From the IMG/VR virus record IMGVR_UViG_3300045988_103986, positions 1 to 64,000 of that record: a stretch of 64,000 bases of DNA. One strand, 5' to 3'. The first letter of the stretch is position 1. Each line of letters begins with the position of its first letter. The notes below the pieces were generated by a model. The model ran no database searches. It worked only from the letters and a program-made list of their open reading frames with translations, and was not told the DNA's origin. The DNA is from a virus. The position numbers were made by a program, and so were the translations under genes. Positions 32,076 through 49,511 of the stretch are shown in pieces.

Positions 32076-32092
32076 AAATATCTACCGGAGGC

Positions 32093-32126
32093 GGGACAAA
32101 GTTCCCGCTTCCGGTAGATACAAAAG
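32093..32126 (+). promoter_or_regulatory. cassette box pair P9 (sequestered in a 16-bp interrupted hairpin, 32080-32119)
   Basis: ATCTACCGGA g GCGGGA caaagt TCCCGC t TCCGGTAGAT. Confidence 0.55.
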
Positions 32127-32164
32127 CAGAACAGGAAAACCAAGAAAACTGGGAGGTACATAAA

Positions 32165-32755: not shown

Positions 32756-32821
32756 ATTTCCAAGTCATGTAGAAATTTCAGAATCCACATGTTAGAATGG
32801 GATGAGATTGGGGGGTTGCCG

Positions 32822-33052
32822 ATGTTCTACAAAGCCGGCGAGTACCGGATAAACCAAGAAAACGAATTTATTTCCGCCTCGACTGGATTGCCGCTGAAAC
32901 CAGGCGATCTGGTGGCGCTGGAGGCTTTCTGTGACGCGAATGATATTTCGCCGATAAAATCCTATGGGAGGAAAATCGTTTCACAGAACCGCGAGGTAGT
33001 CGTTGTGAACGGTGTGAAGAAGCTGTACAAATCTGCCGTTGTTCAGATTTGA
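32822..33052 (+). CDS. hypothetical protein, 76 aa
   Basis: Start MFYKAGEY after the G-rich tract; start uncertain (alternative at 32789). Confidence 0.45.
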   Translation: MFYKAGEYRINQENEFISASTGLPLKPGDLVALEAFCDANDISPIKSYGRKIVSQNREVVVVNGVKKLYKSAVVQI

Positions 33053-33060
33053 ATCATCTT

Positions 33061-33221
33061 CGTGAGGTCACGAAATAGATTGCAAGCAGGTTGCAAGTTG
33101 GTTGCAACATTCCAAGCGGTAATAGGAAAATAGCACGCGAAACGCACGGAAAACACACGAAAAACGCACGCAAGTTGTAAGCAAGTTGTAAGCAAGTTAC
33201 CATTTCCGCGAGGTCACGAAA
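33061..33221 (+). repeat. repeat-dense intergenic block
   Basis: Flanking copies of GAGGTCACGAAA (33064, 33210; the first lies within palindrome CGTGAggTCACG). Internal repeats: TTGCAAG x3, CGCACG(G)AAAA x4, GTTGTAAGCAA x2-3. Confidence 0.75.
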
Positions 33222-33236
33222 ATGGTTGAGAACCAA

Positions 33237-33278
33237 GAAAACCAGAGCCATCCACGTTCGGACGGTTCTGGTTTTTTG
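33237..33278 (+). terminator. rho-independent terminator
   Basis: AAACCAGA ...20 nt... TCTGGTTTTTT. Confidence 0.5.
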
Positions 33279-33289
33279 TTTGGAAATGC

Positions 33290-33322
33290 GGGACAAATGC
33301 GGATCTTGCGTAGAAATACAAG
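33290..33322 (+). promoter_or_regulatory. cassette box pair P10 (orphan: faces the 3' end of an opposite-strand gene)
   Basis: GGGACAAAT gcggatcttgc GTAGAAATACAAG. The next + strand start is >1.6 kb away. Confidence 0.5.
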
Positions 33323-33333
33323 CAGGCAAAACA

Positions 33334-34857: not shown

Positions 34858-34894
34858 TTCACATCAGCCTCATCAAATTATAATAAAAGTATAT

Positions 34895-34923
34895 TGACAG
34901 CATCATTTTATTATGCTATTATT
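34895..34923 (+). promoter_or_regulatory. canonical sigma-A promoter
   Basis: TTGACA - 17 nt - TATTAT, 22 nt upstream of the RHH start. Confidence 0.7.
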
Positions 34924-34945
34924 ATGCTTGAAAGGAGGATATTGC

Positions 34946-35104
34946 ATGGCACGACCGAAAGAGAACACTGAGCGGATAACCGTTTTCTTCCCGGCGGATG
35001 CACTTGAAAAAATGAAGGAAGAAGCTAAACGCCGTGGAATGACCGTAAGCGGATACGTTCGTTTTGCAGTTCTTGAATATCTCCGTGAAAGCCGAGATAA
35101 ATAA
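34946..35104 (+). CDS. ribbon-helix-helix (CopG-like) protein, 52 aa
   Basis: MARPKENTERITVFFPADALEKMKEEAKRRGMTVSGYVRFAVLEYL; AAGGAGGA RBS. Confidence 0.7.
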   Translation: MARPKENTERITVFFPADALEKMKEEAKRRGMTVSGYVRFAVLEYLRESRDK

Positions 35105-35199
35105 AAAATCGAGCAACCGTAGCTAAGTTTGGCGACCCACTACGATTGCTCTTGTGCCAAAACCGCAGGGGTTTTGTCTATTCAAGTATAGACGAAGCG

Positions 35200-35228
35200 C
35201 CCTGTAAAAGTCAAGCACTTTTACAGGG
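35200..35228 (+). terminator. 12-bp-stem hairpin, terminator-like
   Basis: CCCTGTAAAAGT caagc ACTTTTACAGGG followed by a T-rich stretch. Confidence 0.5.
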
Positions 35229-35315
35229 ATTTCTATACCCTTTTTCAGGAATTTCAGAATAGTTTTAAAAGCATCCGCAGCCCCTACAAATTTCGAACAT
35301 TTCGCCTATAAACGG

Positions 35316-35361
35316 TATGACCTAATTCATTTGGAGGCCGAACTATACTGAAATTAGATGG
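35316..35361 (+). promoter_or_regulatory. module-start element, copy 3
   Basis: TATGACCTAATTCATTTGGAGGCCGAACTATACTGAAATTAGATGG. Confidence 0.55.
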
Positions 35362-35395
35362 GTATTGCCACCAAACACGATTAAAGGAGAAAAAT

Positions 35396-36223
35396 ATGAG
35401 CTATTTAGAAACGATCAACAACACCAATATCGCAATCAAAGAGTATCAGGGGCAGCGCGTCGTCACGTTCAAGGATGTTGACACAGTGCATGGAAGACCG
35501 GATGGAACCGCGCGGAAGCGTTTCAATGACAACCGTGAACACTTCATCGAAGGCGAAGATTTCTTCAAAGTTAAGTGTTCTGAGGTGCGTCCGTTTTTCG
35601 GACAGACCCCGCCGAACGGTTTTAACCCCGATGCAGACATTGTTCTCGTGACTGAATCTGGCTACCTCATGCTTTCGAAGTCCTTTACAGACGATAAAGC
35701 TTGGCAGGTACAGCGGCAGCTTGTGAAGGGTTACTTCCGGGCAAAAGAAGCCGTGCAGCTCTCCCCTGCCGAACAGCTGCTTGCGCAGGCGCAGCTCATG
35801 GTCGAGCAGGAGCGTCGGATCAAGGCTCTGGAAGCCAGTAACGCCGAAAACGCACGGGCAATGGAGACGGTCAAAGACGCCATCGACATCATGGTAGCGC
35901 CGCCCGTAACGGCTGGCAACTGGCAGAGCCAGATGAACCGGAACGTCCGCGCATTCTGTATGCAGACGGGCCTCGACTTCCACGAAACGTTCAGACAGCT
36001 TTATGCGGAACTGGAAGTATCGGCCGGTGTCAAGCTTGGTGTCCGCGTTAAGTTCGCACGCCAGCGTCTGCAGGTCAACGGCGCAACACAGACCGAGATC
36101 GCGGCCGTCTCAAAACTCAGCATTGTCGCGCAGGACAAGAAACTGCGAGAGATTTTCAACAGCCTGTACAACCGTATGGTTGCCAGATACACAATCAATA
36201 CGGACAGAACACAGAATCGTTAA
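35396..36223 (+). CDS. ORF6N-domain antirepressor-like protein
   Basis: IKEYQGQRVVTFKDVDTVHGRPDGTARKRFNDNREHFIEGEDFFKV. Confidence 0.75.
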   Translation: MSYLETINNTNIAIKEYQGQRVVTFKDVDTVHGRPDGTARKRFNDNREHFIEGEDFFKVKCSEVRPFFGQTPPNGFNPDADIVLVTESGYLMLSKSFTDDKAWQVQRQLVKGYFRAKEAVQLSPAEQLLAQAQLMVEQERRIKALEASNAENARAMETVKDAIDIMVAPPVTAGNWQSQMNRNVRAFCMQTGLDFHETFRQLYAELEVSAGVKLGVRVKFARQRLQVNGATQTEIAAVSKLSIVAQDKKLREIFNSLYNRMVARYTINTDRTQNR

Positions 36224-36236
36224 AGGAGGTAAAAAC

Positions 36237-36800
36237 ATGGCAGAAAGACGCATGTTTGCAAAATGCGTTGTTCAATCCGCACAGTTTCTGAAAATGCCGG
36301 TCGCGGCCCGGCTTTTGTATTACGACCTTGGCATGGCCGCTGATGACGATGGCGTCGTCGAAGCATTCACCGTACTTCGTACAACGGGCGCGTCCAAAGA
36401 CGATTTGATGACCCTCGCAAGCAAGAAATTCGTTCAGGTCATAAACGATGATCTAGTTACGGTCATCCTTGACTGGAAACGAAACAACCAAATCCGTAAA
36501 GATCGATACCGCCCTAGCATTTACCGAGACCTGCTTTCTTCGCTTGGAGCGGTCGTAGAGGAGTCAGTTGTAACAGAGGAAAACGAAGAACGAGAGAAAA
36601 CAGAAAAATGCCCATTCTGCGGTGGTGACGCATATTTGCATTTTGCGCAAAGCCGTTATCTCTTCGTCAAATGCGACGTCTGTGGCGCAACCGGAAAATC
36701 GTATTATCAGAACCTGACAACAGAAGAAATGGACACCGGCGAATGGGTGAAGACAACAGCCGCTGTCAGTGCAGTTCGCGCTTGGAATCGGAGGAACTGA
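36237..36800 (+). CDS. second replisome-organizer N-domain protein fused to a Lar-like zinc ribbon
   Basis: MAERRMFAKCVVQSAQFLKMPVAARLLYYDLGMAADDDGVV...DWKRNNQIRKDRY, then CPFCGGDAYL...CDVCG. Confidence 0.75.
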   Translation: MAERRMFAKCVVQSAQFLKMPVAARLLYYDLGMAADDDGVVEAFTVLRTTGASKDDLMTLASKKFVQVINDDLVTVILDWKRNNQIRKDRYRPSIYRDLLSSLGAVVEESVVTEENEEREKTEKCPFCGGDAYLHFAQSRYLFVKCDVCGATGKSYYQNLTTEEMDTGEWVKTTAAVSAVRAWNRRN

Positions 36801-36801
36801 A

Positions 36802-37746
36802 ATGGAAGAAGAGAAGAAAGCATTTTTGCTTTACCATGAGGGTATCGACGATATCCTCACCCTTCCAAGGGAAAGCGCCGGTGCAGTCATTCAGGCGATT
36901 TACGTCTACGTGAACACCGGCGCACTGCCGAAAGACTTTACCCCGCTTGAAGAAATGGTTTTCCGGCATATGCGTCAAGGGATAGACCGCAATGCGGAGA
37001 AGTGGGAGCGCGAACGAAAGAAGCGGCAGGACAGAGCCAGAAACGCGGCCAACGCCAAGTGGAAGAAGTTCGCAGAGGAACACGGGACAACCACTGACGA
37101 ACTGCAGCGCCTTATGGACACAGCTGCTAAAGCATGCAATAGCATGCAACCGCAGAATGAACCATGCTATAGCATACCAGAGCATAACAATGAATGCGCA
37201 AGCACGCCAAAGCAGGATATTTTATGCCAAAGCATGCACGAGCAGATTAAGCATAACACAGAAAAAAATAATTCTGCTAATAAAGTAAATGTAAGTGTAA
37301 ATGTACCTGTAAGTGTAAGTGGTAATGGTAGTGTACCTGTTAGTGGTAGTGTACCTGTAAGTGTAAGTGCCAATGATCCTGTACCTGTTAAAGAAGAAGT
37401 GGGAGTGGAAAAGGGAAAGGAAGAGGGTGCAGGGGGAAACCATTGGGAAGAACCGCGTCCTTCGCGTGCTGCGCCGATGTTGCGTATGAACGCCGTGATC
37501 GTACCTGACGAACCGCCGAAGTCGAAGGACGGGTTGGTTTTTGGAAGCGAAGATTATATCCGGATATTTAACGAAGAGTCCGACCGGTTTGCTCTGCCGG
37601 GAGAGAAGCCGCGCTATTTTGCCGACTTGACCGGTCCAATGCTGGTCAACCTCGAACGCTGCGAGCAATCCAGGCTGCAGAGTGGCCGTCCGAAGGAACG
37701 GTCTTCCCTTGTGAGAGATGAACTGATCGCACATGGTTTTTGGTGA
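36802..37746 (+). CDS. DUF6291-like protein with a low-complexity V/S/P/N repeat
   Basis: FLLYHEGIDDILTLPRESAGAVIQAIYVYV...RNAEKWERERKKRQDRARNAANAKW. A GTAAGTGTA/GTACCTGT DNA repeat at 37290-37390 encodes VNVSVNVPVSVSGNGSVPVSGSVPVSVS. Confidence 0.6.
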   Translation: MEEEKKAFLLYHEGIDDILTLPRESAGAVIQAIYVYVNTGALPKDFTPLEEMVFRHMRQGIDRNAEKWERERKKRQDRARNAANAKWKKFAEEHGTTTDELQRLMDTAAKACNSMQPQNEPCYSIPEHNNECASTPKQDILCQSMHEQIKHNTEKNNSANKVNVSVNVPVSVSGNGSVPVSGSVPVSVSANDPVPVKEEVGVEKGKEEGAGGNHWEEPRPSRAAPMLRMNAVIVPDEPPKSKDGLVFGSEDYIRIFNEESDRFALPGEKPRYFADLTGPMLVNLERCEQSRLQSGRPKERSSLVRDELIAHGFW

Positions 37747-37763
37747 GAAGGAGGTTTTGCGCC

Positions 37764-38135
37764 ATGAACAACAATGAAATTCAGAAGGAGTTGTCCCGTC
37801 TGACGAAGCGCTATGCAGATGTCGGGGCCACAGAAGAAAAAGTCCTTGAACTGTTCGAGGCAATGAAAATCCGTTTCGCTGGTCGAGGCGACGAAGCTGC
37901 CGTGCTGGGTGTCCGTATGTCGCTGGGCGAGTATTTCCACCGGGAGGAAATTTTCTCCCTCGATGATGTCTGCTGCATGGTCGCACGACCGAAAGAGGAA
38001 GTCATTGCACACATAATCGCGATGGGGCCAGAGGTCATGCGCAGGCACATTGTCACCGTAGAGCCGTCGCCATATTTGGTCGAATACCTCAAGCGAAAGC
38101 ACGAACGCGAAAACCGGCAGGACGGCCAGCAATGA
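37764..38135 (+). CDS. hypothetical protein, 123 aa
   Basis: Start MNNNEIQKE behind AAGGAGG. Confidence 0.6.
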   Translation: MNNNEIQKELSRLTKRYADVGATEEKVLELFEAMKIRFAGRGDEAAVLGVRMSLGEYFHREEIFSLDDVCCMVARPKEEVIAHIIAMGPEVMRRHIVTVEPSPYLVEYLKRKHERENRQDGQQ

Positions 38136-38160
38136 TGTTTCCAAAAAGTGCAGAACCCGT

Positions 38161-38193
38161 GGGACAAATTTGGATTTTGTGTAGAAACACAAA
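38161..38193 (+). promoter_or_regulatory. cassette box pair P11 (no gene directly downstream; followed by hairpin GCCAC..GTGGC)
   Basis: GGGACAAAT ttggattttgt GTAGAAACACAAATAGG. Confidence 0.45.
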
Positions 38194-38251
38194 TAGGGGC
38201 CACACCGCCAAGTGGCTTTGAAAAAACTCTCCCAGACCTTAATCTTCCCTA

Positions 38252-38280
38252 TTGACTTTTGGGGCTACATGAATTATATT
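38252..38280 (+). promoter_or_regulatory. canonical sigma-A promoter overlapping an inverted repeat (operator-like)
   Basis: TTGACT - 17 nt - TATATT; CATGAAT tatattgt ATTCATG spans the -10. Confidence 0.65.
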
Positions 38281-38313
38281 GTATTCATGGGCTACAAGAA
38301 GTGAGGTGAAAAC

Positions 38314-38481
38314 ATGAGTCCACGCACTGGACGCCCGAAATCAGAGAATCCCAAATCAAACCCGCTTCACGTCCGTTTGGACGATAAGACGCTGAAAGTT
38401 CTTGACGATTACTGCGAAAGAACCGGCAAGAAGCGCACAGAAGCCATTCGGGACGGGATTCTCTTATTGGAAGGTAAATAA
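38314..38481 (+). CDS. ribbon-helix-helix (CopG-like) protein, 55 aa (below ORF-track cutoff)
   Basis: My own translation: MSPRTGRPKSENPKSNPLHVRLDDKTLKVLDDYCERTGKKRTEAIRDGILLLEGK; GAGGTG RBS. Confidence 0.65.
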   Translation: MSPRTGRPKSENPKSNPLHVRLDDKTLKVLDDYCERTGKKRTEAIRDGILLLEGK

Positions 38482-38656
38482 GAATCCCCCACGCTGTTCG
38501 ATCTTGGCGGACTGACAGCATGAGGGATGGTGTCCACATCTTGCGGAAGATGGGGAGCGTAAATATATTACTACGCTCCCCGGAAAAGGTCAACCTTTTT
38601 GCGGGGATTTTTCTGTACATATGGAGAAATCCAGGAAAAGTAAAAGGAGAAATTTT

Positions 38657-39382
38657 ATGAATGAATTGGCGAAAATTATTCCCATCAACACCGAAAACCC
38701 CGAACGAATCACGGTCTTTGCCCGTGACCTGCACGCATTCTTGGAAGTCGATACGCGCTTCAATGACTGGTTTCCCAGAATGTGCGAATTTGGTTTTGAA
38801 GAGGGAAAAGACTTTTACTCATTTTTGAGTAAAACCCAAAACGGCGGTAGACCGTCCAGAGACGCAGAACTCACTATTGATATGGCAAAAGAAATCTGCA
38901 TGTTGCAGCGCAACGAAAAGGGCAAAATCGCGCGCCGCTATTTCGTCGAACTTGAAAAGGCGTGGAACAGTCCGGAGAAGGTCATGGCGCGGGCTTTGCA
39001 GATTGCAAACAATCAGGTAAAGCAGTTACAGGCGAAAATCGAAGCCGACGCGCCCGCCGTGTTCTTCGCCGAAGCCGTAACTGGCGCGGACACAAACATC
39101 CTCATCCGTGATATGGCGAAACTGCTTGCGCAAAACGGCGCAGACATTGGTGGGAACCGTCTGTTCGAGGTTTTGCGCCGGGATGGATATCTCATCAAGT
39201 CGGGCAGCGATTACAACATGCCCACGCAAAAGGCCATGGAACTCGGCCTGTTCTTCGTAAAGGAAACGCCGCGCATTGCCAAGGAAGGAGCCGTCATTGA
39301 TCGGACGACCAAGGTAACACCGAAAGGCCAGAAATATTTTATCAACAGATACGCGCCGAAGAAAGCGCTATTGGAAAATTGA
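38657..39382 (+). CDS. AntA/KilAC-type phage antirepressor
   Basis: VFARDLHAFLEVDTRFNDWFPRMCEFGFEEGKDF...TIDMAKEICMLQRNEKGKIARRYF (AntA), then IRDMAKLLAQNGADIGGNRLFEVLR...MELGLF (KilAC). Confidence 0.85.
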   Translation: MNELAKIIPINTENPERITVFARDLHAFLEVDTRFNDWFPRMCEFGFEEGKDFYSFLSKTQNGGRPSRDAELTIDMAKEICMLQRNEKGKIARRYFVELEKAWNSPEKVMARALQIANNQVKQLQAKIEADAPAVFFAEAVTGADTNILIRDMAKLLAQNGADIGGNRLFEVLRRDGYLIKSGSDYNMPTQKAMELGLFFVKETPRIAKEGAVIDRTTKVTPKGQKYFINRYAPKKALLEN

Positions 39383-39404
39383 AAAACGAAAAGGAGAAGC
39401 AAGA

Positions 39405-39611
39405 ATGAATATCAAAGAAATCTATGAGCACACACAGAATGTCGACGGCTGGATTCTCGGCATTGATGGCAGCGCAAGCCCGGTGGATCTGAGCAATCCG
39501 GCAATCATGGCCGGTGTCGGGAAATTCCATGTGAAGACGATCTATCCGGAATTCGACGACGGCAAAATCATCGTCGAGCTGGACGTTGCCACCACGGTTG
39601 AGACCGATTAA
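39405..39611 (+). CDS. hypothetical protein, 68 aa
   Basis: AAGGAG RBS. Confidence 0.55.
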   Translation: MNIKEIYEHTQNVDGWILGIDGSASPVDLSNPAIMAGVGKFHVKTIYPEFDDGKIIVELDVATTVETD

Positions 39612-39728
39612 AAAATATTTTTTCGGCTTCCTCGCGGCACTTCGGCTGCGACAACTCCAAATATTCTTCGACAAGTTCCGAATTTTCCTTCTCTTTTGGA
39701 GATATCTGAACTTCTTCGACAGTTTTTA

Positions 39729-39773
39729 TATGACCTAAATCATTTGGAGGCATGAGTATGCTGAAAATAGAGG
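39729..39773 (+). promoter_or_regulatory. module-start element, copy 4
   Basis: TATGACCTAAATCATTTGGAGGCATGAGTATGCTGAAAATAGAGG followed by a CAA-rich leader. Confidence 0.55.
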
Positions 39774-39831
39774 CAGGTAACAAACGAAGCCAAGCAAACA
39801 AGCAAACAAACAACAACAGGAGGAAAAAGCA

Positions 39832-40191
39832 ATGACAAAAACCGAATGCGCAGTCTATGATCTGCTCAAGGAAATCGGCGTACCGACTCACAAAAAAGGC
39901 TACGCCTACATTCAGGAGGCAGTCACCAACAAGTACGATGGCAAGTACGAAGACTTCTCCATCACCGGGCCGAAAGGCATCTATTGCGACGTCGCAAAGA
40001 AGTTCAGGACTGAGGCCAGCCGGGTGGAACGTGACATTAGATCGGCTATCGATTACGCGTTCAACTACGGAGATCCCAAAGTGCTGTACGGCATCTTCGG
40101 AAACTCCATCGCTCCCGGAAAGGGAAAGCCAACAAACGCCATGTTTATCTTCCAGTGCGCAAAGGAACTTGAGCGGCGAAAGTCGGCTTGA
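39832..40191 (+). CDS. stand-alone Spo0A C-terminal (DNA-binding) domain homologue
   Basis: LLKEIGVPTHKKGYAYIQEAV / IYCDVAKKFRTEASRVERDIRSAIDYAF / KPTNAMFIFQCAKEL align with B. subtilis Spo0A [21 protein letters not shown] / [28 protein letters not shown] / KPTNSEFIAMVADKL (from memory). Confidence 0.85.
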   Translation: MTKTECAVYDLLKEIGVPTHKKGYAYIQEAVTNKYDGKYEDFSITGPKGIYCDVAKKFRTEASRVERDIRSAIDYAFNYGDPKVLYGIFGNSIAPGKGKPTNAMFIFQCAKELERRKSA

Positions 40192-40212
40192 CAGAAAATC
40201 CCCGCAGGCAGC

Positions 40213-40245
40213 GGGACAAATGCAAAAACTCGGTAGAACAAAAAG
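40213..40245 (+). promoter_or_regulatory. cassette box pair P12
   Basis: GGGACAAAT gcaaaaactcg GTAGAACAAAAAGTGCAAAG. Confidence 0.5.
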
Positions 40246-40291
40246 TGCAAAGCAAATGCAAAATCAAAATCAGAAAAGGAGATCAGCCACA

Positions 40292-40528
40292 ATGAAGAAA
40301 GAAAAATGCGCCGCTCTGGTCTATGTCCCGGAGCTCACCCCGGAAGATGTTTTCAGCCACCTTGTGTGTCACCACGCAGACGTTGTACGCGCCAGAAACG
40401 CGCAGCGGGCCTACAAGCGCCAGGTTGAACGCAAACACCGCTGTATTGCCTCTATTGTGATCGTCGTGTCCTCGCTCGCTACGGCCGCCACGCTGCTCAT
40501 CACGAGTGGTGCCATTCACTTCCTGTGA
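40292..40528 (+). CDS. C-terminally membrane-anchored protein, 78 aa
   Basis: MKKEKCAALVYVPE...IASIVIVVSSLATAATLLITSGAIHFL; AAGGAG RBS. Confidence 0.5.
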   Translation: MKKEKCAALVYVPELTPEDVFSHLVCHHADVVRARNAQRAYKRQVERKHRCIASIVIVVSSLATAATLLITSGAIHFL

Positions 40529-40541
40529 TTGGAGGCCGCGC

Positions 40542-40709
40542 GTGTACAAGTTGTATGACAGTTATCCGGACTTCCCTGCCCTCGTCGGCACGTTTGAAAG
40601 CGTCGACGAGGCGCGGGAAGCCGCACGGAAGCTAGACGAAGCAACGGGCGGGAAATTCTTCCCGAGACTCGTCAAGGATGGAAAGGTCATTCAAGATTGG
40701 GGGTATTGA
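40542..40709 (+). CDS. hypothetical protein, 55 aa (GTG start)
   Basis: GGAGG 6 nt upstream of the GTG; start uncertain. Confidence 0.4.
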   Translation: MYKLYDSYPDFPALVGTFESVDEAREAARKLDEATGGKFFPRLVKDGKVIQDWGY

Positions 40710-40712
40710 GGA

Positions 40713-40958
40713 ATGACGTATGCGACACTGGAAATCATCGCCTCTCTTCTTGAGAAGGAGAAGAACATCCGGGAAAAGGAATGCGAGCTCCTGCGCGAGA
40801 AGCTGAATTCTGCGCGCGGCAAAGCGGAAGACGCGCCAGAAGATGACGAACTCTCTCATGTAGCAGAGTTCGCCCGAGCATTGTACGAAAAGGCCAGAAA
40901 GAGGCTTCTCAACCATGAACGCGCTTATGAGGACTTCCTTGAGCATGATTTTCGATAG
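40713..40958 (+). CDS. hypothetical helical protein, 81 aa
   Basis: ORF abutting the previous stop. Confidence 0.5.
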   Translation: MTYATLEIIASLLEKEKNIREKECELLREKLNSARGKAEDAPEDDELSHVAEFARALYEKARKRLLNHERAYEDFLEHDFR

Positions 40959-40974
40959 GAAATTTATTTGGAAG

Positions 40975-41008
40975 TGGGACAAATCCATTTTTTCGGTAGA
41001 AACATAGG
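40975..41008 (+). promoter_or_regulatory. cassette box pair P13
   Basis: GGGACAAAT ccattttttcg GTAGAAACATAGGTGTAAG. Confidence 0.55.
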
Positions 41009-41043
41009 TGTAAGACAAAACACCATACAGGAGGCCAAAAACA

Positions 41044-41223
41044 ATGAAGAAAGTTGAGGAATTATGGAACGAGTTCGGCGATGTGCCGATGAACCCGGAA
41101 ACAGAGTGCATTGAGGAAACATGGAACGGGTTCCCAGCCGGAACAAATCGGGAGGAAATTTGGCACTGGTTCGAGGAAACATTCGACGTTCGCGTCGCTG
41201 ATCTGATGTACGGAGGTATCTGA
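41044..41223 (+). CDS. hypothetical acidic protein, 59 aa (below ORF-track cutoff)
   Basis: My own translation: MKKVEELWNEFGDVPMNPETECIEETWNGFPAGTNREEIWHWFEETFDVRVADLMYGGI; CAGGAGG RBS. Confidence 0.5.
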   Translation: MKKVEELWNEFGDVPMNPETECIEETWNGFPAGTNREEIWHWFEETFDVRVADLMYGGI

Positions 41224-41224
41224 A

Positions 41225-41815
41225 ATGGGACAGCGTTCACAGATCTATGTCCGCGCGTCCGGGCAGCTCATCGTTGCAAACTACTATCAATGTAACTATG
41301 CCGAGCGAATGATTTCGCGTGCTAGATACGGCATTGAGTGCATCGATTCGGTCAAGGACTACAGCCACTGGATTTTTCTCCGCGACGTGAACGTCGAACA
41401 TTTGCGCCGTATTCTGGACGTAAACTTCGACCTCAAGGACCACCAGACTTCGAGCAAGATCATCGAAGAATGGAAGGACGTTTTTCCAGACAAGCCTTTC
41501 AACGATGTCGTGTTCAACTGGCAAGACAATAACGACGGTCAGCTGTTCATCGACTTCACGAAAGACGGGAAGATCTCTTATGCGTTCCGGAAGACGGAAG
41601 ACATGACGTGCGAAAGCCCGATGTCTGCTGCCGAATACATGGAATGGGATCGTCGGAACTGGCTGGATTGCGAGTCCATGACGAAGGCTGAAAAAGCCAC
41701 CTGCCGCCGTAACATTGCAGCTATCGATAAGATGGCAAGACTTATGACCGCAGAGGAATTGAAAGAGTTCGTCCATCATGACTACGGGTACAAATCCGTT
41801 CAGGAGGCAGACTGA
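41225..41815 (+). CDS. hypothetical protein, 196 aa
   Basis: GGAGG RBS; coupled. Confidence 0.65.
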   Translation: MGQRSQIYVRASGQLIVANYYQCNYAERMISRARYGIECIDSVKDYSHWIFLRDVNVEHLRRILDVNFDLKDHQTSSKIIEEWKDVFPDKPFNDVVFNWQDNNDGQLFIDFTKDGKISYAFRKTEDMTCESPMSAAEYMEWDRRNWLDCESMTKAEKATCRRNIAAIDKMARLMTAEELKEFVHHDYGYKSVQEAD

Positions 41816-41816
41816 C

Positions 41817-42089
41817 ATGACCTTTAGAGATTTCTGTACAGGCTTCCGCGATTACTGGCCGAACTTCGTTGCAAAGCACTGGAACTTCTCACAGTGCAGA
41901 AACGGATACAGTGCCGGGTACACGCCGAAATATCCAGAAAAGACAGCAGCGGATTTCGACGTATTTTATAACACTTGCGACGGCTCATGGACACTCTACG
42001 CTGGAACAGCGTGCGTCCCGATTATAAGAAGGTTTGAATCCTTCGACAAACTTGCGAAGCAGGCTTGTGAACCCGCAAAATGCCCGTAA
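41817..42089 (+). CDS. hypothetical protein, 90 aa
   Basis: Start MTFRDFCTG 1 nt after the previous stop. Confidence 0.5.
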   Translation: MTFRDFCTGFRDYWPNFVAKHWNFSQCRNGYSAGYTPKYPEKTAADFDVFYNTCDGSWTLYAGTACVPIIRRFESFDKLAKQACEPAKCP

Positions 42090-42126
42090 GTTCCCGCAAG
42101 ATACCCGCAAAAAACGTAGATTTTCC

Positions 42127-42160
42127 GGGACAAATCCGGAATCCAGGTAGAACAGTAAAT
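42127..42160 (+). promoter_or_regulatory. cassette box pair P14
   Basis: TTCCGG GACAAA TCCGGAA tccag GTAGAACAGTAAATGTAAG (box 1 forms a hairpin loop). Confidence 0.5.
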
Positions 42161-42204
42161 GTAAGCAATCACACAACAACAATTATTTTATGGAGGTAAA
42201 AACA

Positions 42205-42909
42205 ATGGCAAAGGAAACCAAGGAAACCAAGGAAATCAGACGGTACATCAAGCTCACGTTTATCGAGCCGGTGCTGGGTACCTGGCCGAGCAACGAGAAT
42301 GTTGCGCGTGACTTTATCGCGTCCAAGGCCCCGGACGCAAGCACGATTGAGGATGAGGTCGCAGCGGTCGGCGTAGATGCCGTCGCAGACAAGGCAATGA
42401 CGATCTTCCCGCGTGTCGATGGTAAGCCCGTGTTCTATGATTATCAGATCAAGGGATTTTTCAAGGACACCTGCAGTGCCCTGGCTCGTGCGAAGTACAC
42501 GAAGTCCAGCACACTGAAAGCGTATAAGAAGGTCATCGACGGTATGATTTTCCCATTCCCTCGCGCGATTCCCATTGATGTCCATGGCGAAATTGGAGAG
42601 TGTCAGCGTCCGCTTCGTGCGCAGACCGCACAGGGCGAGCGTGTGAGCCTCGCAAACTCCGAGGAAATCCCGGCCAAAAGCACGATCAAGTTCGGCGTGA
42701 CACTCGCAGATCCTGCGCACGAGGCGTTGCTGAAAGAATGGCTGGACAACGGATTCTTCCGTGGCCTCGGTCAGTGGCGGAATTCTGGCAAGGGTCGCTT
42801 CGTCTACAAGATGCTCGATGAGGAAGGCAACAACCTCGGCGGAACGGAAGAAAAATTTGGTCGCATGACGGAGGAAGCGAACTTCTTCCCGGAGGAAAAG
42901 GCGGGCTGA
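42205..42909 (+). CDS. hypothetical protein, 234 aa, with RAMP-like motifs (speculative)
   Basis: GGAGG RBS. YDYQIKGFFKDTCSAL and the glycine loop GLGQWRNSGKGRF (G-h-G-x5-G-x-G) recall Cas7/Cas6 RAMPs. Acidic/aromatic tail. Confidence 0.7.
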   Translation: MAKETKETKEIRRYIKLTFIEPVLGTWPSNENVARDFIASKAPDASTIEDEVAAVGVDAVADKAMTIFPRVDGKPVFYDYQIKGFFKDTCSALARAKYTKSSTLKAYKKVIDGMIFPFPRAIPIDVHGEIGECQRPLRAQTAQGERVSLANSEEIPAKSTIKFGVTLADPAHEALLKEWLDNGFFRGLGQWRNSGKGRFVYKMLDEEGNNLGGTEEKFGRMTEEANFFPEEKAG

Positions 42910-42919
42910 TAGGCCCGCC

Positions 42920-44395
42920 GAACGGGGCAATGGAAATGCGTCGCCCGGCCCAGCCTGGATTGGCATCGCAAAGGAGCAGCACTGCTCAGCGAAGCTCAGC
43001 GCAGCAAAGGAAAAGCGAGGTAGCGCAAGGCGTAGCAACGGAGAGGTGGAGCGCCGCACAGTCAAGAACTGCATAGGCCCGGCTGAATTCTGTTTTGGGA
43101 CGTGAAGATCAGCGAAGGCTTCGCGGGGCGATGCGTATCTCAGCAACGCAAAGGAAAAGCGGAGACTGGCGTAGCGCTGAAATGGAGCGGCTGGGAGATG
43201 TTTCGCATAGTGAAGGCGAAGTATTGAGAAGCAGTGACCAGGAAACAGCCCACAAGCCCCTGCCTTTAGGCATGGTGATAGTCTAAACATACGGTAGGGC
43301 GGGACACGCCCGAACCTATACGCTCGGGGAGACTATGTAAGACGCCACTACGGTGCAACGGTCGCTGAACTGAGAATCCCTCGGCTTTAGCCGTGGGGAG
43401 TGTCAAACGCGATGGCTGGGCATCGAAATGAGTCGCCTTGATGCGCCCGGAAAAGCAACGGCATTGCAGGGTGAAGCAACGCGTAGCGGAGGCAAGGCAG
43501 AGTGCAGTCGTGCTTGGTATAGCAAAGGAATGGCAAAGCAGTGCACAGAAATGCAAGGGTGAAGGACTGAGCTGCAAAGCATTGTTTGGCAATGGCATTG
43601 AGATGAATCGAAGCGCGATGGACTTGCTCGGTACTGCGCAGCAAAGGCTCTGTGAGGGTTAGCTTTGAGACGCGAAGCAATGGCGATGCACCGAGAAGCC
43701 GGGAGAGGCCAAGGAACGCAATGGTTCTGCACTGCTTTGAATCGCAACGGCGTCACATAGCATGGAAACGCATGGCGAAGCAAAGGCAAGGCGGAGAGTA
43801 GCTACCTACTGCTGAGGAATGCAAAGGATTAGTTGAGAAGCGAGTAGCCACGCAAAGGTAAGGCTAGGAAGGGCTAAGCGTAGCGACGCATCGGCACAGT
43901 GTATAGTGTGGCCGGGCGCTGCAATGGCAGAGCGAGGCGTGGCCTTGCGGAGAAAAGCAGTGGCGAAGCAACGCGAGGAAAAGCAAAGATTAGCAACGGC
44001 ATAGTACAGTATCGAATGGTCGGGTTATGCAAGGGAATGGCGACGAGTCGCACGGACCGGCACAGCGCGGCAGGGCATAGCAGAGGCATGGAACTGCGAG
44101 GCGATGCACGGGTTTGCGAAGGGAAAGCGGTGCAAATCGAAGTGCGGAGCGGCAACGAAAACGTAAAGGAATGCCACGCAGTGTGATGGATAAGGATTGC
44201 ATGGGAACGCTCTGAAACGCGAAGGTGAGGCGTGGCTTGGTAAGGAGATGAGCCGCGCCGATATGCAAAGGCAGGGAAGGGTAATGCAAAGAAATGCAAC
44301 GGATGAGCAAGGATAGGCACAGGGCAGCGATGTCTGGCAATGGGAAGGCGACGTCCGGTAACGTGACGCGAGGGCTTTCAACTGTCTGCGAAAAA
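42920..44395 (+). repeat. ORF-free purine-rich tract with 22 same-strand GCAANGG motifs
   Basis: Stops in all frames. Motif starts include 42927, 42968, 43004, 43035, 43148, 43455, 43522, 43553, 43589, 43641, 43677, 43718, 43744, 43780, 43821, 43852, 43921, 43993, 44029, 44265, 44296, 44337. I found none on the - strand. Confidence 0.8.
43234..43406 (+). mobile_element. miniature tnpB-less derivative (LE joined to RE/omega-RNA scaffold) of the IS at 48152-49471
   Basis: 43234-43275 is nearly identical to 48152-48193. 43285-43406 is ~90% identical to 49350-49471, ending GGGGAGTGTCAA. Confidence 0.8.
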
Positions 44396-44507
44396 ATTTT
44401 TTGATGTCTATTGGGTGCTAAAAACGCTCAAGGAGACGTTCGCTCTGCATAATGTTCTGATACCGCATATATTTCCGAACTTACCAGAACATTTTAGCTA
44501 AAAACAA

Positions 44508-44564: not shown

Positions 44565-45653
44565 GTGGCGTTCCCAAATGGATATGAAAAGTTCCGCGAA
44601 GCGATGATTGCTTACGAAGACAACCTGAGAGCGATCGGGCGCGCAGAAACAACAATCGAAAACGAAGAGCGGATTTTCAAATACTTCTCCGGCTTCATGC
44701 TGGAAAATGGCCGGTGGGACAAGCGCGAAGAGAGTTTCATAGACATTCAGGCGTGGCGAGACCAGCTGCGGCGTGACGGGAAAAAGCCGTCGACAATTAA
44801 GCAGTATCTGAAAGTTCTGAGCAGCTTCTACAAGTTCGCCTCTTCCGCGCAGCTCGGAGACAAGCGCTGGTACGATCAGAATCCCGTTGGTGCCCTACTT
44901 TTGCCGGACACCAAAAAGCGGGACAAGCGCCCATATGACGAACTTCTCACAGACGAGCAAGTTCTTCTCCTGTGGCGGAACAATCCTCCGCAAAAGCTCA
45001 GACGGCCAGAATATTGGGAGCGGAATTACGCCATCGTCGTTCTGCTGCTGACTACAGAGATCCGCAACAGGGAGCTTCTGGCGCTCACGCCGAGCGACCT
45101 GGACTGGGAAAACTCAGAGCTGATCGTCGATCATGGCAAGGGTGATAAATACAGGTCCGTGGACTTCCCTCTCCTCGCGCAAACCGCCATGCGGATTTAT
45201 CTGAATAGTGGAATCCGACCAGAGACTGCAGGAGACCATGACCCGCTCTTTGGGACAGAGGCAACCAGAGACTTTCAGGGAGCCAACAAAGGCGCGGAGT
45301 GGCACGCAGGGACGCGACAGTGGCTCTCAAACGTGGTCCGGCGTCATGTGAAATCCGTAACCGGTGTAGATGATATCCGATCTCACGACCTGCGGCACAT
45401 CGGTGCGCGGCTTGACCTGAACAGCGGGATGAGCATTGAGGAACTGCAGTCAAAACTTGGGCATGAGTCAGTTTCAACAACACAGATCTATTCCGGCAAA
45501 CTCACCAGCCGCAAGAAGCGACGCATGACAAAGATAGTGCTGGAAGAAAAAGACCGTCAAGCTCAAAGAAATATCGAACGTTTGGAGGTTAACGGAGATA
45601 ATTTTTTCGGGCAGCTCCGGTTGAAGCAATTCCAGCAGCCGGAGACAGCGTAG
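44565..45653 (+). CDS. int: tyrosine recombinase/phage integrase (GTG start)
   Basis: N-terminal SAM-like domain; catalytic region NRELLAL...HGKGDKYR...IRSHDLRHIGA...LGHESVSTTQIY. Confidence 0.9.
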   Translation: MAFPNGYEKFREAMIAYEDNLRAIGRAETTIENEERIFKYFSGFMLENGRWDKREESFIDIQAWRDQLRRDGKKPSTIKQYLKVLSSFYKFASSAQLGDKRWYDQNPVGALLLPDTKKRDKRPYDELLTDEQVLLLWRNNPPQKLRRPEYWERNYAIVVLLLTTEIRNRELLALTPSDLDWENSELIVDHGKGDKYRSVDFPLLAQTAMRIYLNSGIRPETAGDHDPLFGTEATRDFQGANKGAEWHAGTRQWLSNVVRRHVKSVTGVDDIRSHDLRHIGARLDLNSGMSIEELQSKLGHESVSTTQIYSGKLTSRKKRRMTKIVLEEKDRQAQRNIERLEVNGDNFFGQLRLKQFQQPETA

Positions 45654-46007: not shown

Positions 46008-46081
46008 CCAGCATTGGTGTAGCGGTAGCACATCAGTCTTCCAAACTGAGAGCGCGAGTTCGAGTCTCGTATGCTGGTCCA
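46008..46081 (+). tRNA. tRNA-Gly (anticodon UCC)
   Basis: Hand-folded cloverleaf: acceptor CCAGCAT/ATGCTGG, D-arm GTGT-AGCGGTA-GCAC, anticodon arm TCAGT-CTTCCAA-ACTGA, T-arm GCGAG-TTCGAGT-CTCGT, encoded CCA. Confidence 0.65.
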
Positions 46082-47943: not shown

Positions 47944-48233
47944 GATACCATCCGAGTTTGGCTAGTTCGCACAAGCGTTCCGCTGTGTAGAAAATCGGAA
48001 CCCATGAAAGTCCTCGTTGCGCTGGTACGCCAAACACAACAGCGCGGGCAAAAATCGTTGGTGAATATCGCGCGTAACACGCAACGTTGACTGCTGTTCA
48101 ATAATTCGGGAAACAGACAAAGAGCAGGCTTGGTTAAAGGCTCATAGTGCGGTGACCAGGAAACAGCCCACAAGCCCCTGCCTTTAGGCATGGGGTAAAG
48201 GGCTGCAAGTCTACTTATTGTTGGAGATGAAAC

Positions 48234-49346
48234 ATGGGATATTCCTACAAATTTAGGCTGTACCCAAATACGGAGCAGGAGAACTTAATACAGCGTACTT
48301 TCGGCTGTGCTCGATTTGTGTATAACCACTTTCTCTCTGAACGCATCACGCAGTATCGAGAAACCGGGAAATCTCCTACACGTTTTCAACAGGACAAAGA
48401 ATTGACGCAGCTGAAGAAATCGGTTGAGTGGCTGAAAGAGGTTGATGCAACCGCACTGCAATCTTCTTTGCAGAGCCTTGATGCCGCCTATCAGAACTTC
48501 TTCCGTCGAGTGAAATCCGGTGAAAAGCCAGGATTCCCACGGTTCAAGAGCAAGCATGACCACCGCAAAAGCTACAAGAGCAAAGCCGTTGGAACAAACA
48601 TCAAAGTATTGGACGGTGCGGTCCAACTGCCGAAACTCGGCAAAGTCAAATGCCGTATCAGCCGAAAGGTTGAGGGCAGAATCCTGTCTGCTACGGTATC
48701 ACAAAATCCGAGCGGCAAATACTTTGTATCGCTCTGCTGCACTGATGTGGAGATTGAGCCGCTTCCAAAGACAGGCTGTGTTATCGGCGTTGACATGGGG
48801 CTGAAAGCATTCGCAATCACGTCCGATGGAACGGAATATCCAAACCCGCGTTATTTAGCCAAGAACCAGAAGAAACTTGCCAGATTACAACGGCAACTCT
48901 CCCGAAAATCAAAGGGGAGCAACCGACGCGAGAAAGCGAGGATTCAGGTGGCGCGGTTACATGAGCACATCGCAAGCCAGCGCAGCGACATGATGCACAA
49001 GCTGTCAACGCAGCTCATCCGGGAGAACGATGTAGTCTGCATCGAAGACTTAGCACCGAAGAACATGGTCAAGAATCATCGCCTTGCGAAGTCCATCAGC
49101 GACGCATCGTGGGGCGAGTTCAGGCGGCGGCTAGAGTACAAGGCCGCGTGGTATGGAAAGAAAGTCATAGCGATAGACCGGTTCTTCCCATCCAGTCAGC
49201 TATGTTCCTGCTGCGGGTATCGGAATACCGGAACAAAGAATCTAGCGGTGCGGGAGTGGACGTGCCCCAAATGCGAAACACACCACGACAGGGACATCAA
49301 CGCCGCGAAAAACATTTTAAGTGAGGGCTTGCGCCTGTTGGCCTAG
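48234..49346 (+). CDS. tnpB: RNA-guided endonuclease TnpB
   Basis: [12 protein letters not shown]-terminus; RuvC triad contexts [23 protein letters not shown]; zinc finger CSCCG...CPKCE. Confidence 0.9.
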
Positions 49347-49471
49347 CCAAAACACACGGTAGGGCGGGACACGCCCGAACCTATACGCTCGTGGAGACTA
49401 TGTAAGACGCAACTACGGCGCAACGGTCAGCGAACCGAGAATCCCCCGGCTTTAGCCGTGGGGAGTGTCAA
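49347..49471 (+). ncRNA. omega-RNA scaffold / right end of IS copy B
   Basis: Conserved in all three copies: TAGGGCGGGACACGCCCGAA ... GAGAATCCCCCGGCTTTAGCCGTGGGGAGTGTCAA, with hairpins GGGCG/CGCCC and CCGGCT/AGCCG. The 5' limit inside tnpB is not determinable. Confidence 0.6.
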
Positions 49472-49511
49472 AGGTTGGTTCGGCGGGACGCCGCTGCATG
49501 AGCCTGCATAC

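Follow-up and report, generated by a model that had tools for sequence, protein, structure and literature searches.

A phage gene for a Cas7-like protein and the pentamer-phased tract beside it: a linked pair that may form a protein–RNA module

In the 64,000-nucleotide stretch of viral DNA considered here (referred to below as the window), a gene for a 234-aa Cas7-like protein is followed by a tract of 1.45 kb which, over its whole length, is built from successive GNNNN pentamers (GCNNN in most cases), punctuated by GCAANG hexamers that move the phase of the G by +1. Comparison with related loci shows that gene and tract are obligately linked and in the same orientation, that the phased Gs are under purifying selection, and that the tract code differs between two protein families. 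We think it probable that the two are parts of one phage module, in which a stand-alone Cas7-like RAMP protein would assemble along a phase-coded RNA transcribed together with its own gene. Three points in this are inferred: a role of the tract as RNA, binding of that RNA by the protein, and a ratio of one subunit to each pentamer. No description of such a module was found in the literature covered by our search, outside which most subscription journals lie.

The features of the locus are as follows.

42125–42164, + strand: promoter-like cassette directly 5' of the Cas7-like gene (function assigned by position only)
42205–42909, + strand: Cas7-like RAMP gene of family A, 234 aa, its frame confirmed by the list of open reading frames
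42900–42919, + strand: GC-rich hairpin around the stop codon (GGCGGGC-TGATAG-GCCCGCC, read directly), with no U-tract on the + strand
42921–43238, + strand: first part of the pentamer-phased tract (GNNNN units and GCAANG hexamer marks)
43239–43406, + strand: 168-bp miniature derivative of an IS200/IS605-family (TnpB-only) element, precisely inserted in the tract
43407–44377, + strand: second part of the pentamer-phased tract, its phase chain stopping at about 44373
44565–45653, + strand: tyrosine integrase gene, given for context only (Pfam Phage_integrase, E=4e-19; PHROG 1)
46008–46081: tRNA-Gly (ARAGORN and Rfam), 3' of the integrase gene

The promoter-like cassette belongs to a family, spread across the early region of the phage, in which GGGACAAAT-N10-GGTAGAWAT occurs 12 times or more from 26009 to 42125. 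The first-pass annotation had placed the last cassette of a promoter array ahead of the gene, and the copy at 42125–42164 is indeed the last, and a putative promoter; the same annotation's 234-aa gene is present, with an agreeing frame and a GGAGG ribosome-binding site (RBS) 7 nt upstream, and its stop codon lies, as had been described, inside a GC hairpin lacking a U-tract. This hairpin is kept in the closest relatives (in L001, as GGTGGGC...GCCCACC, both arms have changed with pairing preserved) and is absent from more distant ones, where the tract begins 1–10 nt past the stop codon. It scores as terminator-like when read on the − strand; a − strand transcript ending there (42919–42900) was set aside because the hairpin occurs in the closest clade only, and elsewhere the tract spans the interval from the stop codon to the next + strand RBS. 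There is no promoter cassette between the gene and the tract. What lies 3' of the tract in the window is some 190 nt and the control region of the integrase gene itself, with no abutting RBS. Genes for antirepressors, Lar, a Spo0A_C protein, DUF proteins and the integrase are the neighbours in the window, and the tRNA-Gly gene probably marks the end of the prophage.

The interruption of the tract at 43239–43406 had been noticed as a miniature IS, and this proved correct. Both ends of the 168-bp insert match full-length TnpB elements (at 48151–49475 and 57368–58690, and at 2689–3997 of L008); the 370-aa ORF of a full-length copy matches Pfam OrfB_IS605 and a Cas12f1-like TNB domain. The insert itself contains no ORF, and it is missing from the relatives L009, L010 and L020, giving an exact junction (43238|43407). 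It is not part of the protein–tract system.

The 234-aa protein has no match in Pfam, NCBIfam or PADLOC, and only a single, non-significant one (E=0.17) in PHROGs; a Pfam search with 31 distant members of family A gave noise only, and a search of a phage collection with the region returned just three unannotated human faecal phage contigs, containing part of the gene at 66–69% identity. Its AlphaFold2 model (pLDDT 77.8, pTM 0.74) has a predicted RRM-like RAMP core fold, and a Foldseek comparison of the model with the PDB gave 135 matches at E<=1e-3, the best 50 of which were all Cas7-type RAMP chains or Cas7-11 domains. Heading these was a type VII Cas7 (8z4j_J, E=1.5e-7), followed by Csm3, Cas7-11 and Cmr subunits, and the matches to Cas7 backbone subunits had E-values of 1e-7 to 1e-5 and TM-scores of 0.5–0.6 (the models for this family and for the second family described below are of moderate quality, with pLDDT of 78 and 71 and TM-scores of 0.4–0.6). 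A profile of the family matched Cas7 (type VII, E=7e-5) and Csm4 (E=1.3e-4) in the PDB, aligned at the GxGQWRNSGKGRF loop; the C-terminal glycine-rich loop of the window's protein, GLGQWRNSGKGRF, aligns to the loops of both. An element, YDYQIKGFFKD, is located where the K-G motif of RAMPs is expected. The most conserved segment (CQRPLRAQTAQGERVSLA) is a β-hairpin in the model (residues 131–155), with a tip of low confidence, and this strictly conserved hairpin may lie where the thumb of Cas7 is expected, as judged from secondary structure only and not from superposition. Among members of family A the CQRPLRAQTAQGER hairpin is invariant and the GQWRNSGKGRF loop nearly so. By its predicted fold and its glycine-loop profile matches, then, the protein is a Cas7-type RAMP. 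The likeness to RAMPs had originally been suggested from two short motifs, and the fold and profile matches bear this out; the glycine loop had been compared with those of both Cas6 and Cas7, but the protein resembles Cas7 and Csm3, not Cas6.

Family A has more than 7600 homologues, which fall into 1618 clusters at 50% identity. Named source entries for them read 'hypothetical protein', and a homologue in BFVD with 72% identity bears the automatic name 'Cas system-associated RAMP superfamily protein'. The MAGs that contain members span several phyla by assignment, from Oscillospiraceae to Coriobacteriia, Planctomycetota and Chloroflexota, although a bin does not prove the host. No cas genes (Cas5, Cas6, Cas10, Cas11 or Cas1/2) were found beside the gene in the window or in the related loci examined, nor is there a CRISPR array near the gene in the window.

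It was the motif GCAANGG that first drew attention to the tract. It had been counted 22 times on one strand; the actual count on the + strand, within 42927–44343, is 23, and it is truly absent from the − strand, whereas 2000 dinucleotide-preserving shuffles of the tract contained it 1.93 times on average and at most 9 times. The spacing of the motif had been called irregular, but the gaps are quantised, 15 of the 22 being 26, 31, 36 or 41 nt (5k+1). The motif is the visible part of a stricter pentamer code, which had been missed. A G occupies each fifth position for at least 25–45 nt on either side of every motif, with a shift of +1 at the motif itself, and the hexamers that cause the shift usually follow one another at those same four intervals. 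The tract can be segmented into 221 pentamers and 36 hexamers with G at 97% of anchor positions (and C at position 2 of 53% of pentamers); its phase-chain score is 143.5, as against no more than 12.5 in shuffles and in any other stretch of the window, and the autocorrelation of G at lag 5 is 1.69, compared with 0.98 in coding DNA. In family A generally, the mean step is 5.13–5.2 nt, and unit length peaks at 31–36 nt.

In composition, the tract is 63% purine on the gene strand (slightly below the two-thirds estimated at first), and each of the six frames is interrupted by stops, as had been reported, with all three types of stop codon present in every one. The − strand frames have 6–9 stops each, with spurious ORFs of up to 148 aa. 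A recoded or hidden coding region is ruled out, given all stop types in every frame and a period of 5, not 3. Tandem Repeats Finder detected in the tract no near-identical direct repeats of 23–50 nt with unique spacers; the sole recurring element is the 6–7-nt mark, and all the intervening 'spacers' carry the G phase, in keeping with the initial view that this is neither a CRISPR array nor a simple tandem repeat. No repeat-like hairpin unit was found in the tract, and Rfam 15 gave no match to it at gathering score (at E<=10 there were only chance matches to eukaryotic miRNA, snoRNA and lncRNA families). Nor is there excess structure, the MFE z-scores of 200-nt windows of the tract ranging from −1.4 to +1.9, the same as coding controls, and this fits an extended, protein-coated strand of RNA.

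The association of gene and tract, which the first-pass annotation had proposed to be one system, is strongly supported by their co-occurrence among relatives. In all 86 viral loci there is exactly one tract, on the gene strand, starting 1–25 nt past the stop codon (exceptions to this start being five loci with an inserted HNH endonuclease gene and a few with an ORF running into the tract). A tract also adjoins the gene in 78 of 80 genomic loci (47–72% protein identity), where it is on the gene strand, as scored by the phased G, in all except L159; in about ten of these it is 5' of the gene, and in several it is on both sides. Gene and tract have been kept together from 97% protein identity down to 34%, the 34–40% homologues also carrying a tract. 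A scan for the tract pattern made with DNA alone found 119 loci, with the gene present at 108 of them and in each of these 108 on the motif strand; one locus, L192, has an orphan tract remnant without the gene. The tracts of relatives are 0.26–1.5 kb long, and are intercistronic: in most loci the next gene has its RBS and start codon within 5–40 nt past the tract, with no terminator. Close relatives differ at 2.8% of phased-G sites, compared with 9–15% at pentamer positions 2–5, and at 0% and 0.9% for the two hexamer Gs; the phased Gs have thus undergone 3–5 times fewer changes than their neighbours.

A second family of phage proteins (family B; 218 aa, with at least 5005 homologues), Csm3/Cas7-like by predicted fold, has its own version of this arrangement. 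In 76 of 80 loci the gene is followed by a tract, in this case of GGYNN pentamers with GGCA tetramer marks, each moving the phase by −1 (so that the mean step is less than 5 nt), in units of 9–79 nt as compared with 26–41 nt in family A. The phage L107 carries both genes, and the code of each tract matches the gene that it adjoins. An hhalign comparison of the two families yielded only a non-significant match at the glycine loop (E=0.029), so they are unrelated in sequence and the link between them rests on fold.

Under the interpretation that we favour, the first part of the module would be the stand-alone Cas7-like RAMP protein and the second a long RNA co-transcribed with its gene, usually from DNA right past the stop codon and in some lineages from just 5' of the gene. 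The code of this RNA would consist of one G (usually GC) heading each pentamer, the other four positions being almost free, purine-rich and without a stable fold, and of the GCAANG hexamer as a +1 phase shift, most often each 26–41 nt. The protein would assemble cooperatively along the RNA, one subunit per pentamer and each subunit reading the phased G, in a manner resembling the lining of a crRNA by Cas7 subunits at one per 6 nt; the hexamer marks might fix the register or delimit the units, whether by interrupting the filament or by serving as sites of processing; and the product would be a long protein–RNA filament or a series of short particles. That the tract is on the same strand as the gene (163 of 164 loci) and intercistronic, with no intervening promoter and no excess structure, are signs that it is RNA. 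Several points fit this interpretation less comfortably: some 260 binding sites would far exceed what autoregulation needs; the sequence alone gives no reason for a phase-shifting mark or for units of variable length; no RBS abuts the tract in the window; the tract remnant of L192 lacks the gene; and the 5-nt register departs from that of Cas7 filaments.

As to role, modules are situated among early or accessory genes (for antirepressors, Lar, a Spo0A-like protein and Erf/SSB), and our guess would be either a ribonucleoprotein for host takeover or counter-defence, or a device for dosage or timing that acts on the cistron whose RBS abuts the 3' end of the tract. A more specific proposal, which concerns role and is compatible with the favoured interpretation, sees the module as a decoy against CRISPR: by imitating a class 1 effector backbone, the Cas7 look-alike and its RNA would sequester host Cas5/Csm4, Cas10 and Cas11. 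The nearest folds are those of backbone subunits of types III and VII, Lar and antirepressors accompany the module in its accessory region, and there are precedents in RNA anti-CRISPRs, which give rise to aberrant Cas7 filaments (PMC10651486), and in AcrIIIA1, reported to be a protein–RNA anti-CRISPR (PMC11662646). We nevertheless judge it unlikely, since the protein is highly conserved in both its CQRPLRAQTAQGER hairpin and its GQWRNSGKGRF loop, and its RNA code is its own, across MAGs of several phyla, which suggests a self-contained activity and not mimicry tuned to a host; and the register of 5 nt differs from the 6 nt of Cas7 filaments.

Slightly less credible again is an RNA-antitoxin or CRISPR-like processing system, in which an endoribonuclease would cut at GCAANG|G and the resulting 26–41-nt RNAs would stay bound, as inhibitors of a toxin or as guides. 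Here one may point to the peak of unit length at 31–36 nt, near the 36 nt of the ToxI repeat, to arrays that start and finish with the hexamer mark, to a tandem duplication of a unit in L059, to the 5' position of the tract in some lineages, and to the ability of Cas7-11 to process its own pre-crRNA. The units, however, are not repeats in the way that ToxI or CRISPR repeats are, being nearly free in sequence apart from the phased G; the predicted fold is that of a RAMP, not of ToxN or AbiQ, and PADLOC gave no match. When 30-nt pieces of the tract were compared with the rest of the 64-kb window on both strands, none matched above shuffled controls except in the IS-derived insert, and a forced G at each fifth base is hard to square with guides acquired from targets. 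The 9–79-nt units of family B are a further difficulty.

It is also improbable, to a somewhat greater degree, that the tract works as DNA, as phased double- or single-stranded sites (of a centromere, packaging site, origin or integrase arms) to which the RAMP-like protein or one from the host would bind. The mean step in family A approximates half a helical turn of B-DNA, the dinucleotide GC with which pentamers most commonly start is strand-symmetric, some GC-rich lineages (L141, L151, L161 and L162) score on both strands, and in the window the tract adjoins an integrase gene. Against this, the phase shift of −1 and mean step below 5 nt in family B rule out helical phasing as a general cause; the anchor is a G and not a symmetric GC, as the values of 97% and 53% given above show, and the purine bias is on one strand; the phased G lies on the gene's strand in 163 of the 164 tract-bearing family A loci, whether the tract is 5' or 3'; and RAMPs are binders of single-stranded RNA. 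In many phages, moreover, the tract lies between cistrons within an operon, far from any integrase gene and with Erf/SSB, dUTPase or Lar as neighbours, which rules out attP arm sites and makes unlikely the whole suggestion, made in the first-pass annotation, of attP arms or centromere sites. Finally, that the tract is a functionless, decaying pentanucleotide microsatellite beside the gene is extremely improbable and already close to refuted: tracts do vary in length, their units do duplicate in tandem, and close relatives show an excess of indels of 5, 10, 15 and 20 nt, but decay would strike all positions equally, whereas conservation here is confined to the phased G and the Gs of the hexamer, and the tract is retained down to 34% protein identity and also next to the second family, whose code is different.

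If the favoured interpretation is extended to both families, we give about an even chance to the idea that they represent an unrecognised class of phage ribonucleoprotein, in which CRISPR-independent Cas7-like proteins co-polymerise with their own phase-coded RNA, one subunit per pentamer, using at least two private codes. Homologues number more than 7600 for family A and more than 5000 for family B in genome and metagenome data, mostly from gut samples, and thousands of 'hypothetical proteins', with hundreds of bases of 'non-coding' phage DNA on which gene callers now put spurious reverse-strand ORFs, would then be explained. These would be the first Cas7-type proteins to read RNA sequence in a fixed register, and the Cas7 building block would have a second, widespread life in phages, with a dedicated RNA bearing a positional code in place of guides. 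The modules could be related to, or derived from, the class 1 CRISPR effector backbone, and could inform the origin of such backbones or their borrowing by phages. The proposed recognition rule (one G per five bases per subunit) is testable, the two natural codes serving as mutual controls for specificity, and a protein able to polymerise along a programmable RNA might be of use as a scaffold.

Among known systems, the protein most resembles the Cas7 backbones (Csm3 and Cmr4 of type III, Cas7 of type VII and the domains of Cas7-11), in predicted fold and glycine loop, and in the repetition of subunits along a single RNA strand that we propose for it. In contrast to these, the phage locus has no other cas genes, no CRISPR array, no Cas5 or Cas6 partner and no small subunit; the protein is phage-encoded and would be monocistronic with its RNA, a dedicated tract of 0.26–1.5 kb in place of a guide of 30–70 nt. 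Characterised Cas7 filaments, to our knowledge, bind RNA without reading its bases, and a 5-nt register in which a G is read would be without precedent. Those filaments have 6 nt per subunit (PMC10651486), as against the base-specific 5 nt that we suppose here from the phase of the sequence (5 nt, with occasional 6-nt steps).

In grammar, the RNA would resemble the targets of TRAP, which have (G/U)AG triplets 2–3 nt apart with a period of 5–6 nt, each repeat bound by one identical subunit, in unstructured RNA near an RBS. TRAP, however, is a host regulator of unrelated fold that forms a closed 11-mer ring on 11 sites, where the phage tract has hundreds. The layout of the locus recalls the type III toxin–antitoxin (ToxIN) systems, with a protein gene and an adjoining same-strand array of RNA units of about 36 nt; ToxI units, though, are near-identical repeats and the toxin has a different fold, and in the phage there are neither near-identical tandem RNA repeats nor a ToxN/AbiQ-type endoribonuclease. 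Type IV-B Csf is reported to form a Cas7-like filament on RNA that does not come from a CRISPR array, with a function that may differ from those of other class 1 systems (PMC7937560). Csf binds heterogeneous cellular RNA of regular length, together with a Cas11 filament and without a dedicated RNA gene; the phage RNA, by contrast, would be encoded beside its protein and have a specific code. Lastly, Racrs copy the host CRISPR repeat, use host Cas proteins and seed Cas7 filaments (PMC10651486), and AcrIIIA1 is reported as a protein–RNA complex (PMC11662646); both offer parallels for a phage-encoded RNA that seeds Cas7 filaments or acts with a protein; the module described here differs from Racrs in encoding both a Cas7-like protein and a non-repeat, phase-coded RNA.

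The tract on the 3' side of the family A gene (which encodes a 234-aa Cas7-like RAMP protein) carries GCAANGG 23 times on the + strand of 42927-44343 and not at all on the - strand; dinucleotide-preserving shuffles of the tract (2000 in all) averaged 1.93 occurrences and never exceeded 9. The purine content is 63%, and all six frames contain stop codons. The first-pass annotation, which counted 22 one-strand motifs above chance in a two-thirds purine tract with stops throughout, thus holds with small corrections to the count and the purine fraction. Its irregular motif spacing does not: the gaps are quantised, 15 of the 22 being 26, 31, 36 or 41 nt (i.e. 5k+1). When sequences are aligned on the motif, G stands at every fifth position from -25 to 0, at +5 and +6, and then in steps of 5 from +11 to +41, in 17-23 of the 23 sequences at each phased position. 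The whole tract can be segmented into 221 pentamers and 36 hexamers in which 97% of anchor positions are G. The tract is therefore a chain of GNNNN units, in which GCAANG-G is a single 6-nt step that moves the phase. Autocorrelation of G at lag 5 is 1.69, compared with 0.98 for coding DNA nearby (12 kb), and the local phase-chain score of 42933-44373 is 143.5, against 12.5 or less for shuffles and for every other stretch of the 64-kb window.

The chain is broken by a precise 168-bp insertion (43239-43406), missing in three related loci (L009, L010 and L020), whose two ends both match full-length TnpB elements (two in the window, and one at 2689-3997 of a further related locus, L008). Because it retains both ends of the full-length elements, the insert is a miniature derivative, as had been proposed. 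The full-length elements of the window both sit in host DNA beside the prophage:

48151-49475, + strand: full-length IS200/IS605-family TnpB-only element; ORF 48234-49346 (370 aa), matching Pfam OrfB_IS605 and a Cas12f1-like TNB domain
57368-58690, - strand: full-length IS200/IS605-family TnpB-only element; ORF 57511-58614 (367 aa)

The tract shows no excess folding; it matches no Rfam family and, IS copies set aside, has no match or complementarity beyond chance to the rest of the window. Its reverse strand is pyrimidine-rich with few stops, leaving ORFs of 110-148 aa (43266-44381, - strand), and metagenome gene callers annotated such an ORF (186 aa) at 8609-9169 of the related locus L001; reverse-strand ORFs on tracts are almost certainly spurious calls.

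The grammar of family A was derived from 79 distinct related tracts.

Grammar of family A tracts
Pentamer position 1: G
Pentamer position 2: C 53%, A 29%
Pentamer positions 3-5: weak A-richness
Hexamers: GCAAAG, GCAACG, GCAATG and GCAAGG, together 54%
Unit lengths (number of units): 26 (138), 31 (303), 36 (164), 41 (82)

Between close relatives, the phased G is changed at 2.8% of aligned sites, compared with 9-15% at pentamer positions 2-5, and the hexamer Gs at 0% and 0.9%; indels of 5, 10, 15 and 20 nt are in excess. A neutral microsatellite is a very unlikely alternative.

No match to the family A protein was found in Pfam, NCBIfam or PADLOC, and the only PHROGs hit was non-significant (E=0.17). 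Every source giving a name calls it 'hypothetical protein', and one database homologue is auto-labelled 'Cas system-associated RAMP superfamily protein'. The family is large (>7600 sequences in a word-indexed search; 1618 clusters at 50% identity). An AlphaFold2 model (pLDDT 77.8, pTM 0.74) has 135 PDB matches at E<=1e-3, the best being type VII Cas7 (E=1.5e-7, TM-score 0.59-0.62; assigned to type VII according to PMC13069675), followed by Csm3, other type III Csm/Cmr backbone subunits and the Cas7 domains of Cas7-11. Family A profiles also align in sequence, at the glycine-rich loop, with type VII Cas7 (E=7e-5) and Csm4 (E=1.3e-4). Conservation is highest in YDYQIKGFFKD, in a beta-hairpin CQRPLRAQTAQGERVSLANSE and in GQWRNSGKGRF. 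On its modelled fold and loop profiles the protein is a predicted Cas7-type RAMP, which bears out the RAMP-like character first read from its sequence. The accompanying statement that the tract is not a CRISPR array also stands, as neither a CRISPR array nor cas genes were found around the gene in the window. The neighbours of the gene are antirepressors, Lar, a Spo0A_C protein, DUF proteins and an integrase, and the locus includes the following features:

26009-42164: cassette GGGACAAAT-N10-GGTAGAWATATAAGTGTAA, at least 12 sites, e.g. 26009, 27215, 27732, 28876, 29626, 30802, 32093, 40211, 40974 and 42125
42125-42164: cassette GGGACAAAT-N10-GGTAGAWAT, last of at least 12 copies, just 5' of the family A gene
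42205-42909, + strand: family A ORF, 234 aa, with a GGAGG ribosome-binding site 7 nt upstream
42900-42919: GC hairpin enclosing the family A stop codon (L001 counterpart, 8706-8727)

In this prophage the cassette recurs 5' of many early genes on the + strand and, judged by its position, looks to be a family of promoters or operators specific to the phage. Just 5' of its last copy are four copies of CCCGCAA about 11 nt apart (42071-42110), a putative regulator-binding site that may serve the RAMP module. In the L001 hairpin both arms are changed and pairing is kept (GGCGGGC/GCCCGCC to GGTGGGC/GCCCACC); read on the - strand the hairpin is intrinsic-terminator-like, and it is confined to the clade whose protein has an acidic C-terminal tail. 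Between the tract end and the integrase start codon lies an inverted repeat, AATGTTCTG...CAGAACATT (44440-44500), possibly an operator or an element of the attachment-site region. The window lacks a conserved 163-168-aa ORF that relatives carry between tract and integrase gene (L001 9471-9974, L003 5835-6341, L006 4648-5139). Further upstream, two repeat blocks within the ORF of a DUF6291 protein (36769-37746), one of TGCNNNAGCA (37125-37244; 10/30 nt) and one of GTAAxTGTA-type units (37285-37404; 6/12/18 nt), are probably repetitive peptide segments.

Gene and tract are conserved together. All 86 viral-contig loci (protein identity 61-97%) have exactly one phase chain, on the gene strand, usually starting 1-25 nt past the family A stop codon and 0.26-1.5 kb long; in five of them (L055, 6656-7273, and L056, L070, L071 and L077) a 205-aa homing endonuclease gene, HNH-type by our reading of the translated sequence, is inserted exactly between stop codon and tract. 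In species-representative genomes (47-72% identity; mostly Oscillospiraceae, Faecalibacterium and other Clostridia MAGs, with other bins assigned to Coriobacteriia, Planctomycetota, Chloroflexota and others) the tract adjoins the gene in 78 of 80 loci, on the gene strand by phased G with the single exception of L159; it is 5' of the gene in about 10 loci, and in several it flanks the gene on both sides. Even homologues at 34-40% identity retain it. In one at 40% (L169), the tract (1562-2294) precedes the gene, and its better-kept phased base is C, the second base of the GC step (CNNNN units), with the GCAAAG marks unchanged and on the gene strand. Conversely, viral contigs were scanned at the DNA level only, for phased Gs together with two marks at a distance of 31 nt; 108 of the 119 loci found encode a family A protein, on the motif strand in all 108. 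An orphan tract of 175 nt (L192, 4324-4498), directly 3' of a dUTPase gene and without a RAMP gene, looks like a deletion remnant, because in the related L278 a RAMP gene intervenes between dUTPase and tract.

It was from L278 (4093-4949), an exception in the DNA-only scan, that a second family, B, was traced (loci L289-L368). Its protein (218 aa, ending ...GVGEWRPERDGQYGKF, with at least 5005 homologues) has no Pfam match and no significant sequence similarity to family A (hhalign E=0.029, glycine loop only); its model (pLDDT 70.9) best matches Csm3 and type VII Cas7 (E=4e-5). The gene is followed by a phase chain of another code in 76 of 80 loci, GGCA accounting for 315 of 694 tetramers.

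Phase codes of the two families
Pentamers: family A, GCNNN (also GANNN); family B, GGYNN
Phase mark: family A, 6-nt GCAANG, +1 shift; family B, 4-nt GGCA, -1 shift

The sources are gut samples, and the spread of IMG/VR sample numbers indicates that family B is apparently also present in other environments. Two phages, L107 (3673-6927) and L345 (1045-5405), carry both families in tandem. In L107 each tract is written in the code of the adjoining gene; as a control within one genome, this phage shows that the choice of code tracks the protein and not genomic base composition. In L345 the codes are mixed in tracts other than the one directly after gene B, and in the long upstream tract (1045-1904) the family B code changes part-way to one like that of family A.

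At the majority of loci the tract lies between cistrons, extending from the RAMP stop codon to 5-40 nt from the next ribosome-binding site and start codon, with no terminator between tract and next gene; in the upstream arrangement it stops about 45 nt 5' of the RAMP start codon. These data fit a self-contained protein-RNA module: the RNA co-transcribed with its gene would serve the Cas7-like protein as a platform for assembly, a G in every five bases would set the binding register, and marks particular to each family would shift it. That the tract acts as RNA, with one subunit per pentamer, we infer from the fold, the in-operon position, the match of code to family, and the near-constant co-orientation of gene and tract (by phased G, in all family A loci with a tract but one). 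A DNA-level array is a less likely alternative, as is a ToxIN-like or guide-processing system. For a protein-RNA module, the setting among early and accessory genes suggests a role in host takeover or counter-defence (an anti-CRISPR decoy being a further alternative), while the ribosome-binding sites that abut the tract suggest translational control of the neighbouring cistron.

Our search of the accessible literature found no description of such a module. The nearest precedent for the RNA grammar is provided by TRAP binding sites, and we know of no Cas7 filament that reads bases. As cited in PMC10651486, known Cas7 filaments have a 6-nt register per subunit, so a 5-nt register that reads G would be a departure on both counts. 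Near precedents are type IV-B, in which a Cas7-like filament forms on non-CRISPR RNA (PMC7937560), and RNA anti-CRISPRs (PMC10651486); neither of these two, nor TRAP, couples a RAMP to a phase-coded RNA dedicated to it, as is proposed for the present loci.
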